NCBI GenBank assembly: GCA_019056785.1 | Contig: DXJV01000102.1 | Span: 1-25,189, forward strand | DNA length: 25,189 nucleotides | Reading direction: 5' to 3' | Source of the DNA: Candidatus Heimdallarchaeota archaeon | GTDB taxonomy: Archaea > Asgardarchaeota > Heimdallarchaeia > JABLTI01 | In this document: one piece after another, positions 5,117 through 23,498 of the stretch | Layout of the letters: every line of letters begins with the position of its first letter | How positions within the stretch are numbered: position 1 is the stretch's first letter | Position numbers and translations under genes: made by a program | Notes under the pieces: generated by a model | The model's database searches: none | Seen by the model: the letters and a program-made list of their open reading frames with translations, nothing else | Told to the model about the DNA's origin: nothing

Positions 5117-7912
5117 TTAAGAAGTTATTTTGATTTTTTGTGGTTCGGTAGTAGTTGTGATCATTTGGTCCAAGGCAGGATTTGCATCTAGTAATAGCAT
5201 TTTAGAAACATCTAGATCGACTGGTTTGGTTCTAGTACCATTGAAAAGTTCAGACCAATGATAACTACTATCATAAGTTACTCTGAAACGATAGTTCGTA
5301 TTGCTTAGCACACCATTAAATTGGGCATAGCCTGAAGCATTGGTTAGTGCACTTAAACCCGCATAGGCTCCACCTTCGGTGAAAAGGTAGATTCTGTAAT
5401 TGACGAGGGGAGTTCCCGCATCATTTGCATAGCAAAAGACTGTTCCACCGATATTCACTACGTGGGTATAGACTGGCAAGGAGCCGTTGAAAGTGGTCGA
5501 CCAGAATTGTCCGCCAGCGTAATCGATTCTGAATTTGTAATTTGTATTTCTAAGTACTCCATTGAAACGGGCATGTCCGGTTGCATTTGTTCGAGCTGAA
5601 AGACCTGAGTAGGAACCCCAGGAGGTGAAGAGATAGACACGAACATTGTTAAGTGGATTATTCTCGGTGCCATAAACCACCTGACAATAAACAATGCCAC
5701 CAATATTCATCTCATGGACATAGATTGGAAGAGAACCATTGAAGGTAGTGGACCAGTATTGTCCTCCTGCGTAATCCACGCGGAACTTGTAGTTTGTTGT
5801 TGAAAGTACGCCGTTAAATCGAGCATAACCTGATGCATTAGTTCGAGCTGACAGACCTGTATAGGAACCCCAGGAGGTGAAGAGGTAAACCCTTACATTT
5901 GCCAAGGGACTGTCATCTGGTCCATAGACAACATGGCCGTAAACTATACCACCGATATTGATCTCGACCACTAAGCCATCCACTGAACCGTTGAAGAGTG
6001 TTGACCAATATTGTGAGCCCGCATAATCTACTCTGAAACGATAATTGGTATTACTTAGGACACCATTGAAACGGGCATAGCCGGTTGCATTCGTCCGGGC
6101 TGACAGACCAGTATAGGAGCTCCACGAGGTGAAGAGATAGACACGAACATTAGCTAATGTTTCATTTTCGGGTCCATAGACCACATAGGCATAAACAGTT
6201 CCACCAATGTTAATATCGACTACCAAACCATCCACAGAGCCATTGAAGAGTGTTGACCAGAATTGTCCGCCTGCATAATCGACGCGGAACTTGTAGTCTG
6301 TATTTCTTAAGACACCATTGAAGCGTGCATAGCCAGTTTGGTTTGTTCGTGCTGATAGGCCTGTGTAGGAACCCCAGGAGGTGAAGAGATAAACACGGAC
6401 ATTGGCTATAGGATTGTTGTCGGAACCATAAACAACGTGGGCAAAAACTTGACCGCCGATATTAATGGTAACAATCGTTGTAGCATTTTCACCTGTGAAT
6501 TCGTTGCTCCAGATACGACTGCCTGCATAGTCGACACGGAATTTGAAGTAAGTACTTCGGGCAACAGGGTTAAAGAGCGCATAGCCGGTTGCATTCGTTC
6601 TAGCTGACAAACCAGTATAGGAACCCGCAGCGGTAAATAAGTAGACTCGTACATTTGCCAGCGGGGTTTCAGCAGCACCATAGACAACATGGGCATAAAC
6701 TTTTCCACCGATATAAATGTTAATTACAGCACCATCTGCGGCGCCAAAGATCTCGCTCCAGCTTCGTGCACCACCATAATCCACTCGGAAACGATATGCA
6801 CCTTCTGAGAGGGTAAAGGCAGCATAGCCGGTTTGGTTCGTTCTTCTACTAATACCGAGGTAAGAACCAGTTGAGCTGAAGAGATATACTCTGAAATTAA
6901 ATTGTCCGACATTGTCACTATCGATAACTCGCGCATAAACAGTTCCACCACCGATGTTAATAGTGGTTTCATTTACAGTCGGATAGTCAACCAGTGGACT
7001 GCTGTAATTCAAACCTAAATAGAAGACTTTGAAAACATAAGTGCCAGGATTAATTGTTAAGAATGCGTCACCATTTGCATTGGTTTGTGCATGTTCTCCA
7101 ATATATCTTCCGAAGGGATCAAAACCATAAACGGTTAAACCTTCAAGACCACCAGAGCTACCGATAACGTGGACTGTCATCATTGGTCCTCCTCCTCCAA
7201 CTCGAACAGTAACTGTTGAGATTTGCGGGTGGAAGAAGGTTTCAGACCAATAGGTGAACCCCTGGTAGCTAACTTTGACTTTGTATTCACCTATTTTCAA
7301 GTAGGCAAGTACTTGGCCGCTACTGGGGGTTGTTTGTGTTGGTTTCCCAACAAAAGCATCATTAGCATAATAATAATCGACAGCTGCACCTGCAACTGGA
7401 TTGGAATCTTGATCAATTACATGGACAGTAACTGCTGGCCCGGGGATTGCTTCTCCGGCAACGAAGGATTTAGTTTCTGATTTCGAACCATAGGTCACTT
7501 TTATGGTATATGATTGTCCTTCGACAAGCTCACCCGAGGAACTCCAAGCGGAGATTACCACATCACCATCACTATTTTCACCGATGAGTGAGGCGCCTGC
7601 TCTCGTGTATACCCATTGATAAGTTTCTGTTTCACTAAGAATAACATAATCAAATTTTGACATGTTTGCGGCACCGGTGCCATAGGTCGTCACAACAACG
7701 ATGTTAACTTTCAGCGCGTCTATTTTGCCATTATGATCATAATCTTTGAAATCACTAACAGAGGTGATTCCAAATTCAATTTTATTGTCATTTTTCAACA
7801 TTGGAATTACGACAAAATAAACGATTGCTGCAGCAGAAACTGTGAGTGCAACTAGTAAGAGAGTAGCAACAACTGGACTAACTGCTTTTTTATTTCTAAA
7901 TAATCGTCTCAA
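5117..7912 (-). CDS. Giant archaeal type IV pilin-signal protein with nine tandem beta-rich repeats (putative adhesin / minor pilin)
   Basis: MRRLFRNKKA|VSPVVATLLLVALTV is a class III signal peptide. It is followed by a ~120-aa domain with DYDHNGKID and nine repeats resembling carboxypeptidase-regulatory / prealbumin-like modules. Many N-x-S/T sequons; no C-terminal TM. Confidence 0.85.
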   Translation of the reverse strand: MRRLFRNKKAVSPVVATLLLVALTVSAAAIVYFVVIPMLKNDNKIEFGITSVSDFKDYDHNGKIDALKVNIVVVTTYGTGAANMSKFDYVILSETETYQWVYTRAGASLIGENSDGDVVISAWSSSGELVEGQSYTIKVTYGSKSETKSFVAGEAIPGPAVTVHVIDQDSNPVAGAAVDYYYANDAFVGKPTQTTPSSGQVLAYLKIGEYKVKVSYQGFTYWSETFFHPQISTVTVRVGGGGPMMTVHVIGSSGGLEGLTVYGFDPFGRYIGEHAQTNANGDAFLTINPGTYVFKVFYLGLNYSSPLVDYPTVNETTINIGGGTVYARVIDSDNVGQFNFRVYLFSSTGSYLGISRRTNQTGYAAFTLSEGAYRFRVDYGGARSWSEIFGAADGAVINIYIGGKVYAHVVYGAAETPLANVRVYLFTAAGSYTGLSARTNATGYALFNPVARSTYFKFRVDYAGSRIWSNEFTGENATTIVTINIGGQVFAHVVYGSDNNPIANVRVYLFTSWGSYTGLSARTNQTGYARFNGVLRNTDYKFRVDYAGGQFWSTLFNGSVDGLVVDINIGGTVYAYVVYGPENETLANVRVYLFTSWSSYTGLSARTNATGYARFNGVLSNTNYRFRVDYAGSQYWSTLFNGSVDGLVVEINIGGIVYGHVVYGPDDSPLANVRVYLFTSWGSYTGLSARTNASGYARFNGVLSTTNYKFRVDYAGGQYWSTTFNGSLPIYVHEMNIGGIVYCQVVYGTENNPLNNVRVYLFTSWGSYSGLSARTNATGHARFNGVLRNTNYKFRIDYAGGQFWSTTFNGSLPVYTHVVNIGGTVFCYANDAGTPLVNYRIYLFTEGGAYAGLSALTNASGYAQFNGVLSNTNYRFRVTYDSSYHWSELFNGTRTKPVDLDVSKMLLLDANPALDQMITTTTEPQKIKITS
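5204..7438 (-). repeat. Intragenic tandem array of nine ~80-84-aa units; core period 252 bp
   Basis: Equivalent positions at 5621, 5873, 6125, 6377 and 6629 are exactly 252 bp apart. Consensus about GxVYAHVVYG...PLANVRVYLFTSWGSYTGLSARTNATGYARFNGVL.NTNYKFRVDYAGGQ.WST.FNGS...INIG; the three N-terminal units are more diverged. Confidence 0.95.
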
Positions 7913-7975
7913 TTAAATTCCCACCATTAAGTACTGGACTAACTTTTTGCCTTATCTCACTTAAGAATTATTTTT

Positions 7976-8086
7976 GCGGCAAAGAAATGTTACTCCACCT
8001 TCAATTATTAATACTACGACCGAAAAATCCGCAGATATAGCGAAAATATCCGCAATAAATATGTTTTCAGGCACTTTTTTTGCCGC
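7976..8086. promoter_or_regulatory. Divergent control region with flanking inverted repeats and internal direct repeats
   Basis: GCGGCAAAGAAA (7976-7987) and TTTTTTTGCCGC (8075-8086) form an 11/12 inverted match; CGAAAAATCCGCA (8021-8033) and CGAAAATATCCGCA (8041-8054) lie inside. Confidence 0.45.
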
Positions 8087-8172
8087 TATCGTAAAAGTTA
8101 ATCTATTAAAAAACATTGGTTGGATAGCACAAAAATTTTGAGTGAATAACAATTTTTGATAGGCGAAAAACC

Positions 8173-20590: not shown

Positions 20591-21607
20591 ATGCCAACAA
20601 TAGGATTTGTCGGTATTGACAATGCTGGTAAAACCACAATCATTGATGTTTTTGCCAAGCAACGATTTGAACACACAATTCCTACAGTTGGCATTAATTT
20701 TGAACAAATTAGCTTTTCCGAGATTGCCCTGGATTTTGACATATTAGATATGGGCGGTCAAAAGAATTTCCGTATGTTGTGGGTTGATTATCTTAATACT
20801 GTAGATATTGTTATTTATGTTATTGATGCGAGTGATCATAAGCGATTAGAAGAAGCCCTTGAAGAATTTCGGCGAATGTTGGTTATCACTGAAGAGAATA
20901 ATGTCCCCATTCTCATTCTTGTAAACAAAATCGACCTTCCCAATACAATGAGCGCGTGGGAGATAGGCCAACGACTGAGCTCTATCGAAGAGCTTGCGGA
21001 CCGCGATTGGAATATTATTGAAACTAGTGCTGTGACTGCTAAAGGACTTGTCGAAATGATAAAATGGGCTTATTCAAAACTGACCAATAATATTTTAGAC
21101 CTTGAGATCAAGTATCGAGAAATTGCTGATAAGAAATACTATCACCCCTGCCCGCTTCTTTTAACTCTCCCTGATGGGAATTATTGTATTAATCACGACA
21201 ATTTTACGCCGGTAAAAGTCGTTCCATTAGATAACCTCTTTACAAATGAGATGGAAGAGACAGAAGAGGTAATAATTGACACCATAGAGGAATTCAAAGA
21301 GCTGGGGAGAATGGTCTGTTTTAATAATATTTTTGTAACTGATAACGATGAGAAAATACGATGTGCAACAGATCAAACAGTCATCGAGGTTGAAGGGACG
21401 ACTGCGAATAAAGATGAATATATTGATTCGTATAATATGATGCACCTGACTGGCGGGCAAATGTGTTCTGAATGCATCTATAAGATCTTGTTTTCTGCCA
21501 TTAAAAGAAAAGTAAAAGCCATTGCCAAAGAGTATAAGAAGGAAGAGCTTGAAGAGATCTATCGATCCGATTTGGAAAAGATTAGTGATACCAGTAAGTG
21601 CAATTAA
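20591..21607 (+). CDS. Arf/Arl/Sar-like small GTPase fused to a ~170-aa Cys-rich C-terminal domain
   Basis: G1 GIDNAGKTT, G2 PTVG, G3 DMGGQ plus R.LW, G4 NKID, G5 TSA; tail with CPLL-x8-C-x2-H, C-x14-C and CSEC. Confidence 0.93.
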   Translation: MPTIGFVGIDNAGKTTIIDVFAKQRFEHTIPTVGINFEQISFSEIALDFDILDMGGQKNFRMLWVDYLNTVDIVIYVIDASDHKRLEEALEEFRRMLVITEENNVPILILVNKIDLPNTMSAWEIGQRLSSIEELADRDWNIIETSAVTAKGLVEMIKWAYSKLTNNILDLEIKYREIADKKYYHPCPLLLTLPDGNYCINHDNFTPVKVVPLDNLFTNEMEETEEVIIDTIEEFKELGRMVCFNNIFVTDNDEKIRCATDQTVIEVEGTTANKDEYIDSYNMMHLTGGQMCSECIYKILFSAIKRKVKAIAKEYKKEELEEIYRSDLEKISDTSKCN

Positions 21608-21608
21608 A

Positions 21609-23498
21609 CTACTCTTTCTTCTGGGCGGTCTTTTGTATTGCTGTGTCATAAGCTTTCTTATAGGCATGAATGATGTTTTCCCAGCTGTAAATCTCTGCGA
21701 TCTTTCGTGCCTTCACTCGAGCGTTTTCTAGCGCTTTTTTCGACAAGCCCAATTGCTTGAGAATGATTGTTGCCAGTTCATTTGCCGCTTCCTGACTTGT
21801 ACGCCCTTTTCGCCGCAGGATATGAATCCCATCTGAATGCGATTCTGATAATTCATTTACTAATAAACCAAAACCTGACAAGTCAGTAGTGATTGCCGGG
21901 ACGCCAAGCGCAAGTGCTTCTAATGGTGTTAAGCCATAAGGTTCATAAGTTGATGGATAGATGCCCATATCACAACCGGCAACAGCATCATAATAGTCTA
22001 ACTCGAGTAATTGATCCATCTCTGAAAGATAAATAGGATAAAAAATCACTTTTACTTTATCTGAAGGTTTATTTGTCAGGTCTAATTTCTTCAATGTTTG
22101 AAAGATAGTGTCACGTTCATTGATAATAAAGGGGCAAATTGGCGGCATTTCTTCTTGAAGTTCGCCCAATGGATTGTCTAATGCTAAAGCATTTATTGCC
22201 GCGATTTCTTCTTCTGTGAAAAATTCTCGTAGTGTTTTTGACTCGATATGTTCCTCAAATTTTTGTGTGGTATAAGAGAGCCACTCATTCATCCTCATTA
22301 GTGGCCGTTCGATCAATGAGCGATGTTTTTTTGCAATCTCAAATGCCTTACTGACTATTGGTTTGATACCTGAGACGGGAGCCGGCACCCAAATAAATGC
22401 CAGCACCTCTCGTGCGGCTTTTTGGCTTTTTAATTGGCGATTGATAATTTCAAGCGCCTCTAAAAAGACATCTATGCCTTTATTATGAAATTCATACCGG
22501 CCTGAAATGTGAATTATCATTAAATCTTCAAACTGTAGCTTATAATAGGGATTAAAATACGCTTCAACAAAGCGTGCTAACTGACCACGAGCATTTAGAT
22601 GTTTTGAGAGCAGATTATCGCTTGTCGCGATAGTATTAAAATTGATGCCATTTGGAATGATAAAATCGGCTCGTTTCCCAAGAATCACCTCTGTTTCGCG
22701 AGCAACAGCCTCAGAAACAGTAATAAGGATATCTGCTTTTTGGGCGCAAAGAACTTCTATCTGATGTGAACCTTCCACATGATATTGATAAGCTTTTTCT
22801 GGGGGAATCGTTTCTTTTCGTTGGAGGAGTTCGTCAAGAATAACATTAATATCTTCATTACTCATAGCAATGTTTCGACCCAATTGGGTTGCATGCGTCA
22901 TAAAAACAGTCCCAACACTCACTTTATGCTTCTTTAAATAGAGCAACCCCGGACCAGAAATCCATTCATGAAAGTGAGCAACGATATTTTTATTTTTAAA
23001 ACGCGGCATTTCCACCAAGTAGGAAATAAGCACACCAGCTGCCCAACCAAAAGCTACCATCGGATCAAAAACTTCGCTCATCCACAGCGAATCAATTTTA
23101 TACCAATCCCAAAGAAACCCTTTAATTTGATCTATTCGCCTTTCAGGCTTTCCTGTGATAAGCGGAACATCTAAGAGATAGGAAGGATCTAGTAGGATAG
23201 TCTCGACTCCTCCGCCTCCCAGCCACAAACCATATTTCGCAGTTATTCCTTCCAACCGCAATTGATTAAAAACCTCTTCGAATTCCCGTGGTGTCTCGAG
23301 TTCCTCAAAATCATTTCGAGCCTTAAAAGCATTGAAAAGACCGATGGCAAGATAATTTCCCGGCCCTAAGAGTTTTTGCATTTCAGGAGCCTTCGAAGCA
23401 ATGACAGTATAAATTCCGCCTATTTTGTTGCCAACTTCATTTGAAATTTCGAAAACAACCTGGCATTTTTGGTGGGGCATAGACTGTTGTTCTGCCAT
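21609..23498 (-). CDS. Glycogen synthase, GT3 family
   Basis: FEISNEVGNKIGGIYTVI, HFHEW, THATQLGR, SGRYEFHNKGID, VKVIFYP.YL, PSTYEPYGLTPLE. Confidence 0.93.
   Translation of the reverse strand: MAEQQSMPHQKCQVVFEISNEVGNKIGGIYTVIASKAPEMQKLLGPGNYLAIGLFNAFKARNDFEELETPREFEEVFNQLRLEGITAKYGLWLGGGGVETILLDPSYLLDVPLITGKPERRIDQIKGFLWDWYKIDSLWMSEVFDPMVAFGWAAGVLISYLVEMPRFKNKNIVAHFHEWISGPGLLYLKKHKVSVGTVFMTHATQLGRNIAMSNEDINVILDELLQRKETIPPEKAYQYHVEGSHQIEVLCAQKADILITVSEAVARETEVILGKRADFIIPNGINFNTIATSDNLLSKHLNARGQLARFVEAYFNPYYKLQFEDLMIIHISGRYEFHNKGIDVFLEALEIINRQLKSQKAAREVLAFIWVPAPVSGIKPIVSKAFEIAKKHRSLIERPLMRMNEWLSYTTQKFEEHIESKTLREFFTEEEIAAINALALDNPLGELQEEMPPICPFIINERDTIFQTLKKLDLTNKPSDKVKVIFYPIYLSEMDQLLELDYYDAVAGCDMGIYPSTYEPYGLTPLEALALGVPAITTDLSGFGLLVNELSESHSDGIHILRRKGRTSQEAANELATIILKQLGLSKKALENARVKARKIAEIYSWENIIHAYKKAYDTAIQKTAQKKE

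Follow-up and report, generated by a model that had tools for sequence, protein, structure and literature searches.

Results and Discussion

A stretch of 25,189 nucleotides from a Candidatus Heimdallarchaeota archaeon (assembly GCA_019056785.1, contig DXJV01000102.1, positions 1 to 25,189; here called the window) was analysed with a focus on one long gene, which we refer to as the giant pilin gene. A first-pass annotation, made from the letters alone, had noted an open reading frame (ORF) with a pilin-like N-terminus at 5117–7912. This ORF is real and consists of a single frame of 931 codons (P0001) on the minus strand, which had not been stated, with a TTG start and the sequence GGTGG about 8 nt upstream. 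A database protein of 98% identity begins at the identical residue. In an AlphaFold2 (AF2) model of the whole protein, with a mean predicted local distance difference test (pLDDT) score of 85.5, a helix (residues 13–39) is followed by a beta-sandwich (46–151), nine more beta-sandwiches (159–905) and a tail (907–931) that is predicted to be disordered with a pLDDT below 50. For comparison we aligned 23 full-length orthologues of 837–933 aa (most of them 903–933 aa) and 98–33% identity, across which the consensus of the tail is unconserved. The only hydrophobic window of the protein covers residues 9–41, confirming the earlier remark that a C-terminal transmembrane anchor is absent. A sequence search with the whole protein against solved structures gave no match at E ≤ 1, and Foldseek with the whole model returned only generic bead-array proteins with TM-scores of about 0.06–0.1, which are informative for the fold class only. 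The features of the gene and of its divergent neighbour are collected in Table 1.

Table 1. Features of the giant pilin gene and its partner gene (positions refer to the window, residues to the protein).
Feature	Position	Strand	Evidence
Giant modular pilin gene P0001, 931 aa, TTG start	5117..7912	-	ORF list, translation, 23 full-length orthologues
Class III leader, residues 1–10, ends KKA, predicted cut before V11	7883..7912	-	TIGR02537 and Pilin_N matches
Mature N-terminal hydrophobic alpha-helix, residues 11–39, putative pilin polymerisation/membrane segment	7796..7882	-	AF2 helix, small-pilin similarity
Pilin head, predicted beta-sandwich, residues 46–158	7439..7777	-	AF2, VIA, Foldseek
DYDHNGKID loop, residues 57–65, candidate Ca2+ site between head strands 1 and 2	7718..7744	-	Invariant residues, DxDxDG pattern
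Nine tandem CarboxypepD_reg/prealbumin-like beta-sandwich repeats, residues 159–905, linker-less	5198..7438	-	PF13620, repeat alignment, AF2
Central repeats R5–R8	5450..6457	-	71–81% protein identity, 252-bp DNA period at 71% matches
C-terminal tail, residues 906–931 and stop codon, unconserved, predicted disordered, no anchor	5117..5197	-	pLDDT, hydrophobicity, alignment
Partner gene P0002, 507 aa, Sec-type signal peptide, Ig-like repeats, C-terminal transmembrane helix	8173..9696	+	Translation, neighbourhoods
Divergent intergenic region between pilin and partner, 260 bp, direct and inverted repeats	7913..8172	.	Sequence

A class III signal in front of an archaeal pilin module

The leader is basic and ends with KKA, followed by VSPVVAT and a hydrophobic run. 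That this represents a class III signal (KKA/VSPVVATLLLV) had been proposed before, and we could confirm it by matches to two hidden Markov models (HMMs), TIGR02537 from NCBIfam (32.4 bits against a cut-off of 20) and Pilin_N from Pfam (PF07790; 25.4 bits against 25.2), as well as by its conservation. All 23 orthologues keep [KR][KR][AG] followed by [VI]SPV[VI]A, with A10, V11, S12, P13, V14 and A16 being invariant or nearly so. The protein thus has the build expected of class III signals, for which a short basic leader up to [KR][GA], then some 20–30 hydrophobic residues and an HMM score above cut-off are typical, and the leader is predicted to be removed after KKA, before V11.

Within the first 30 mature residues the giant pilin is identical at 24 positions to a 152-aa pilin from its own genome, and the differences are conservative. 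When five genomes were compared, the helix of the giant agreed with the small pilin of its own lineage at 20–25 of 32 positions and with giants of the other family at 16–21 of 32, being as close or closer to the former, and lineage variants such as IVYFVV versus IVFLVV, and also LPMV, were found in both the giant and the small pilin. Such a likeness is what co-polymerisation would require and gives indirect support to a co-assembly of both proteins into one filament. The co-variation is only suggestive, as family f3 has small pilins that hardly differ from one another.

Behind the helix, a pilin-sized domain with a DxDxNGxxD motif had been described, and both were found. We modelled this head separately (AF2, residues 1–158 with the 23-sequence alignment) and obtained an overall pLDDT of 89.6, with about 90–97 for residues 46–158. 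The best Foldseek matches of the head are archaellins and archaeal pilins with E-values from 3e-5 to 1e-3, the top ones being archaellins. With VIA, the closest structures were the type IV pilus of P. calidifontis (8fk7, Z 10.1, 129 of 136 residues aligned) and the archaellin of M. hungatei (5tfy, Z 10.0, 153 of 164), and the Aap pilin of S. acidocaldarius (8q30, Z 8.5, 134 of 141) and the pilus of S. solfataricus (6w8x, Z 7.5, 128 of 132) were also matched. The ten best VIA rows are all archaeal type IV filament (T4F) proteins with Z-scores between 8.2 and 10.1. In the model, helix and head together adopt the fold of entire subunits from the known filament structures of archaeal pili and archaella, with an N-terminal helix and an immunoglobulin (Ig)-like beta-sandwich head that superpose on these subunits. 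The archaellin HMM PF01917 was not among the Pfam matches at E ≤ 1 and no arl genes are present in the window.

The motif reads DYDHNGKID in the giant pilin and its residues D57, Y58, D59, G62 and D65 are invariant in the 23 orthologues (pattern DYDxDGxxD). It is located between the head strands 46–57 and 66–75 in the model and has a non-acidic residue at position 12 of an EF-hand-type loop. Judged by its DxDxDG pattern, the loop is a candidate Ca2+ site, which would serve to stabilise the head. In archaellins a conserved metal site is needed for filament integrity, being located at another sequence position than the loop of the giant (PMC6500986).

One could also imagine an ordinary Sec-dependent repeat protein, either secreted or held by its signal anchor, the pilin-like N-terminus of which is a product of chance or vestigial. 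The marginal Pilin_N score would fit to such a protein, and the same type of repeat array is found on Sec-secreted bacterial proteins. We regard this as hardly credible, as TIGR02537 is clearly above its cut-off, [KR][AG] followed by [VI]SPV does not vary in the 23 orthologues, helix and head match whole archaeal pilin subunits, and stand-alone pilins of about 150 aa exist that are homologous over the whole head.

The stalk consists of nine beta-sandwich repeats

Self-alignment and the AF2 model agree with the first-pass annotation in showing nine beta repeats behind the head, of which seven follow a regular period of 84 aa and two are divergent. In Pfam, the stalk matches CarboxypepD_reg (PF13620) in 8 stretches with 128 bits (cut-off 32.3, E 1.8e-37), and Big_1 and SpaA also match repeat R1. 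Among the bead-array proteins matched by Foldseek with the whole model are GhpA, Cna B, TIE and MG arrays. The central repeats R5–R8 show a mutual identity of 71–81%, R3, R4 and R9 are 39–65% identical to them, and R1 and R2 only 21–33%. Across the 23 orthologues the number of repeats is constant at nine and the structural residues of each repeat are kept; R1–R4 and R9 retain positional orthology between species and R5–R8 look partly homogenised. A recent expandable DNA repeat was considered as well and rejected for the window, as the 252-bp period shows only 71% matches.

Sequons at fixed positions and conserved aromatic residues had also been reported for most repeats. The TNx[ST]G sequon is present in seven of the nine repeats and is kept in 15–23 of the 23 orthologues in each of R3–R9; FNG[ST] occurs in five of nine and is less conserved. 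The protein contains 17 N-x-S/T sequons in total, compared to 10.8 ± 2.9 in shuffled sequences (59 of 2000 shuffles reach 17). The aromatic motifs FTSW and Q[FY]W exist as described and are confined to R5–R8, with a W-S pair in eight of nine repeats.

The repeat subfamily of the stalk is abundant in giant proteins of the YD-repeat/Rhs type from sediment bacteria, with 33% identity over 757 aa. Both arrays have the motif YLF..GSY.G...T[DN]..G...F......YK.R.DY.G.Q[FY]WS in common, and Q[FY]WS and the other aromatic motifs are features of the repeat type and not of the pilin. Where the bacterial repeats read TDxxG, the archaeal repeats read TNx[ST]G. This conserved difference creates an N-glycosylation sequon in the turn and thus supports, without proving it, that the stalk is probably N-glycosylated. 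An exchange of the stalk module across domains of life is conceivable. Carriers of the bacterial arrays (P0021, P0030, P0039 and others) belong to Desulfobacterota and Dehalococcoidia.

The giant pilin belongs to a family of modular pilins

A word-indexed search revealed 52 relatives of the giant pilin including about 25 orthologues. All 23 aligned orthologues originate from metagenome genomes of Heimdallarchaeota/Heimdallarchaeaceae, and orthologues carry generic database labels, a pilin-N-terminal type name at NCBI and "flagellin-like protein" at JGI. When 1.84 billion representatives were scanned exhaustively with the head using HMMER, only 116 proteins were found at E ≤ 1e-3. They fall into length classes of about 150, 360–460, 600–690, 845–930 and 1042–1298 aa. 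In the class of about 150 aa there are stand-alone pilins whose alignment covers the entire head of the giant, and proteins of more than 1000 aa also bear Ig/CarboxypepD_reg arrays. Going by these sequence comparisons, modular pilins with lengths from 150 to about 1300 aa make up a small family which is almost restricted to Heimdallarchaeia, and the giant represents one of its size classes. Weak matches of the head to PKD_6/YDG repeat giants were dismissed as generic Ig-like similarity. A paper describing the family was not found in our literature searches, and neither was an experimentally characterised member. A search of 400 Asgard genomes found the form of 914–954 aa in nine, with three from family f1 and six from f3, and its distribution is patchy even within genera.

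As the head represents a complete pilin module, the giant might be the major subunit of its own thick filament, in which a T4F core is surrounded by the nine-domain arms like a bottle-brush sheath. Archaellins that carry additional outer domains are known as the major subunits of sheathed filaments (PMC13357602). These precedents bear one outer domain and not nine, and nine rigid domains per subunit would be extremely crowded at the T4F rise of a few angstroms. Moreover, the giant shows a patchy occurrence in genera throughout which small pilin and ATPase are retained, and we consider a role as major subunit very improbable.

The assembly machinery is encoded elsewhere in the genome

As noted before, no assembly ATPase or peptidase is encoded in the window, and a platform gene is also absent from its 25,189 nt. 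The source genome (G000; 2.87 Mb, 82.5% complete) does carry such genes on other contigs, namely for a prepilin peptidase, for a T4F ATPase and its platform protein, and for small pilins. An absence of peptidase and machinery from the genome, which would have spoken against the first-pass proposal, was thus not observed. The peptidase is an archaeal A24 enzyme of 450 aa (G000:C84:161969-163321; L009:643-1995, minus strand) that matches Arc_PepC_II with 32.1 bits (cut-off 29.9). It carries a VQD and a GGADSK motif, which we take to be the two catalytic aspartate motifs of A24 prepilin peptidases as they resemble those of PibD, FlaK and PilD. Unusually, some 230 residues full of short G-x-[FL]-x-G-type repeats are inserted between its A24 core and its Arc_PepC_II C-terminus. 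It is the only clear prepilin peptidase of the genome, and matching open frames in family f3 are only 270–280 aa long.

On contig C78, the gene of the ATPase (T2SSE type, 519 aa) precedes one for a T2SSF platform protein. By scanning the genome in six frames for the N-terminal motif we identified the 152-aa pilin on contig C49 (Pilin_N, 37.6 bits) as well as paralogues of 380 and 412 aa. The corresponding small pilin has 139–140 aa in the closed genomes G026 and G027. Orthologues of the ATPase (56–94% identity) occur in 78 of 83 genomes of the class. The combination of such a widespread ATPase with a giant pilin found in only nine of 400 genomes fits to an accessory substrate of a core machine, and the phylogenetic profile of giant and ATPase is uninformative for the same reason, namely that the ATPase is nearly universal.

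A similar picture was obtained for other genomes. No ATPase, platform or peptidase gene is located within 6–10 kb of the giant in seven other contexts, and in five other giant-bearing genomes, two of them closed, ATPase and peptidase are encoded far from the pilin gene, in the closed ones megabases apart. The gene is thus located neither inside nor next to an assembly locus. According to a survey from 2026, T4F genes are typically scattered in Asgard archaea (PMC13705601).

Two further observations concern the machinery genes. A second T4F-like locus (G000:C47:51279-54826; L026:7279-10826) contains a platform gene that is divergent from three overlapping pilin-like genes of 363, 151 and 236 aa, which have class III N-termini of the KKGQ/KKGE type (G/Q type) and no adjacent ATPase gene. 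In G025 (C17:41013-44081) the ATPase orthologue matches in two pieces about 1.5 kb apart within one open frame of 1067 aa, which could be due to an inserted element such as an intein, or to a fusion.

A conserved partner gene adjoins the giant pilin gene

The divergent neighbour P0002 encodes a protein with sequon-rich Ig-like (Big/MG-like) repeats and a C-terminal transmembrane helix followed by ARKK; its Atlas neighbours are Ig-like/MG-domain clusters. Homologues of this partner adjoin giant or other modular pilins (>1000 aa) at 10 genome places in three families, and a partner homologue was directly adjacent to the giant in every metagenomic context examined. In L020 and L021 it is divergent from the giant and 51% identical to P0002. 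In a distant clade it is co-directional and immediately upstream of the giant; here homology was shown for L022 (29%, E 4e-35), and in L023, L024 and two contexts without DNA the upstream gene of about 616–635 aa was taken as the partner homologue by position and size. Within the genome set, the partner adjoins the giant in G022, G026, G027, G049, G051 and G052, and in G025 and G064 it adjoins modular pilins that are 1044, 1054 and 1289 aa long; G002 is the only clear exception among the giant-bearing genomes, having no adjoining partner. Giant and partner therefore form a conserved two-gene module in three families. That both might be duplicates was rejected, as BLASTP detected no similarity between them. 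This co-inherited protein probably cooperates with the giant on the cell surface, be it in docking, in passage or in binding.

The intergenic region shared by both genes contains two AAAWATCCGCA direct repeats spaced 21 nt apart and imperfect inverted repeats with arms of 27 nt (70% complementarity) and 16 nt (81%). The other neighbours of the giant pilin gene in the window are AOR and Fe-ADH genes.

Proposed role of the giant pilin

Taking these results together, we favour with moderate confidence that the giant is an archaeal modular type IV pilin, which takes a minor or tip position in filaments formed by the small pilin and displays a glycosylated rod. The precursor would enter the membrane via its class III signal and the A24-type peptidase of the genome would cut off the 10-residue leader after KKA. 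The mature helix and head would then allow the conserved Heimdallarchaeial T4F machine, consisting of ATPase and platform protein, to load the giant into a filament that is mainly built of the 152-aa pilin. As the head bears a linker-less rod of 750 residues and nine beta-sandwich domains, we expect the giant to be a minor pilin of low abundance, placed at the tip or sparsely along the shaft, from which the probably N-glycosylated stalk of some tens of nanometres might project as an adhesin or spacer. The model follows bacterial modular pilins, for which polymerisation via the pilin module and a position at the tip have been proposed. A pilus-incorporated or pilin-helix-anchored adhesin had already been suggested by the first-pass annotation, the sequence description of which was correct in every testable point; of this suggestion the class III protein with a pilin module and a long repeat stalk stands, and its incorporation, its adhesive function and a role in partner contact are kept here as a proposal.

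Several points weigh against a filament subunit. The Pilin_N score is barely above the cut-off. The head is equally close to the soluble domains of ArlF and ArlG (VIA Z 9.0–9.8, 93–99 residues), and these two proteins stay anchored at the membrane and are not polymerised into the filament. The similarity of the helices rests on two independent lineages only and could be explained by gene conversion among paralogues. No T4F gene is linked to the giant in any genome including the two closed ones, and to our knowledge a subunit of about 930 aa has never been seen in an archaeal filament.

Some of these points would fit better to an envelope fibril, in which the membrane or a very short pseudopilus retains the helix, as has been proposed for the bindosome proteins of Sulfolobus or the stator proteins ArlF/ArlG, with the leader being removed or not. 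The nine-domain rod and the C-terminally anchored Ig-repeat neighbour would then be part of the Heimdallarchaeial envelope or glycocalyx. In addition to the similarity to ArlF/ArlG and the missing linkage to assembly genes, the membrane anchor of the conserved neighbour is in line with such a fibril, and the many paralogues of 360–1300 aa with the same head per genome resemble a general display route. A C-terminally anchored S-layer-like protein paired with a large signal-peptide protein has been noted in surveys (PMC4858521), and class III binding proteins exist that are not filament subunits (PMC13705601). On the other hand, co-polymerisation requires what is seen here, a canonical and strongly conserved cleavage motif together with a helix that hardly differs from the one of the small pilin, whereas a mere anchor could do without both, and a bindosome-like function is opposed by the lack of a substrate-binding domain and of an ABC transporter nearby. 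We therefore see the envelope fibril as the main, though less likely, alternative to the filament-borne modular pilin.

A more far-reaching idea, which we regard as speculative and unlikely, is that Heimdallarchaeia might use the class III/T4F route as a general display system for long Ig-rod proteins of about 380–1300 aa, in which the giant on the filament and its C-terminally anchored, co-inherited neighbour on the membrane would be the two components of a contact device.

Comparison with known systems

The first-pass annotation had not recognised the architecture of the giant. As a design it is known, since modular type IV pilins have been described in bacteria (10.1101/2021.01.27.428410), and its novelty is weakened further by large class III/Ig-fold adhesin-like proteins in surveys of archaeal T4F (PMC4858521, PMC13705601) and by the generic database labels. 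Bacterial modular pilins such as PilB and PilC from S. sanguinis and CofB from enterotoxigenic Escherichia coli also combine a class III signal and a pilin module with domains that are not specific for pili. Multi-repeat examples include an 860-aa protein with 12 repeats. The role proposed for modular pilins is that of a tip-displayed adhesin, and bulky ones polymerise via the pilin module and were modelled at the tip (10.1101/2021.01.27.428410). The giant has the same composition, with residues 1–158 as pilin module and nine CarboxypepD_reg-type domains that are not specific to type IV pili. In contrast to the bacterial proteins, its module is archaeal (Pilin_N/TIGR02537 with an Ig-like beta-sandwich head) and does not show the fold connected with the N-methylation motif, its nine domains are prealbumin-like, and its gene lies apart from the machinery genes and is accompanied by a conserved gene for a membrane-anchored partner. 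When Pfam and NCBIfam were scanned at E ≤ 1, the only pilin models among the matches were the archaeal PF07790 and TIGR02537, and no family with the bacterial N-methylation motif was listed. On this evidence, the giant seems to be an analogue by design and not a member of the bacterial modular pilins, a set defined by IPR012902.

With the archaeal pilins and archaellins (8fk7, 8q30, 6w8x, 5tfy) the giant shares leader, helix and head, which superpose over nearly the whole subunit. Compared to these subunits of 130–210 aa it adds about 770 residues after the head, and the identity is only 7–14%. Ig-fold adhesin-like proteins from archaeal T4F loci (arCOG05616, systems 2 and 4G) are also alike, as they comprise a large Ig protein with signal peptide and a partner with C-terminal transmembrane helix, a pair that was proposed to act as adhesin or minor pilin and envelope component (PMC4858521; PMC13705601). 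These pairs are found inside the loci of Thermoproteales and Euryarchaeota, whereas the giant and its partner stand alone, and we found no evidence for homology between these Ig-fold proteins and the giant family. The bacterial YD-repeat/Rhs-type giants have the same repeat subfamily, and they differ in having no pilin module, in their YD or toxin-type C-terminal regions and in reading TDxxG instead of TNx[ST]G. Bindosome-type binding proteins also place a large non-pilin cargo on a class III signal and are encoded away from the T4F machine that serves them. In contrast to them, the giant has neither a solute-binding domain nor an adjacent ABC transporter and keeps the full pilin head.

While the design principle of a pilin module with grafted domains is known from bacteria and the family has a generic label in databases, the paralogous modular-pilin family of Heimdallarchaeia and its conserved partner gene are new findings of this analysis. 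Modular pilins, which have so far been characterised in bacteria, thus have an expanded archaeal counterpart. The surfaces of Asgard archaea and the way they hold their partners are poorly understood and bear on models of eukaryogenesis. For surface contact in Heimdallarchaeia, the giant modular pilin and the membrane-anchored Ig protein now provide a conserved pair of concrete candidates. The likely machinery can also be named and comprises the peptidase, the ATPase plus platform protein, and the 152-aa pilin. As the design is known, the function inferred and the database label generic, we see the result as useful rather than surprising. Its importance would rise if the pair proved to mediate cell–cell contact of Heimdallarchaeia.

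Other features of the window

On the minus strand between 13890 and 16600, short ORFs of 42–152 aa contain fragments of a Lyase_1 (fumarase/adenylosuccinate-lyase-like) gene and of a Fer2_3 iron-sulfur subunit, which look like decayed genes or assembly frameshift errors. An intact gene with Lyase_1 and ADSL_C is located near the giant pilin gene in the distant orthologous contexts L023 and L024. Two more proteins are encoded further along the window. The first (20591–21607, plus strand) has 338 aa with an Arf-family small GTPase domain in residues 1–165 (E 9e-46) and an unassigned C-terminal half, and is a protein of the Asgard eukaryotic-signature type; the second (21609–23498, minus strand) is covered along its entire 629 aa by PF05693, the glycogen synthase family of eukaryote type (E 2.6e-102).

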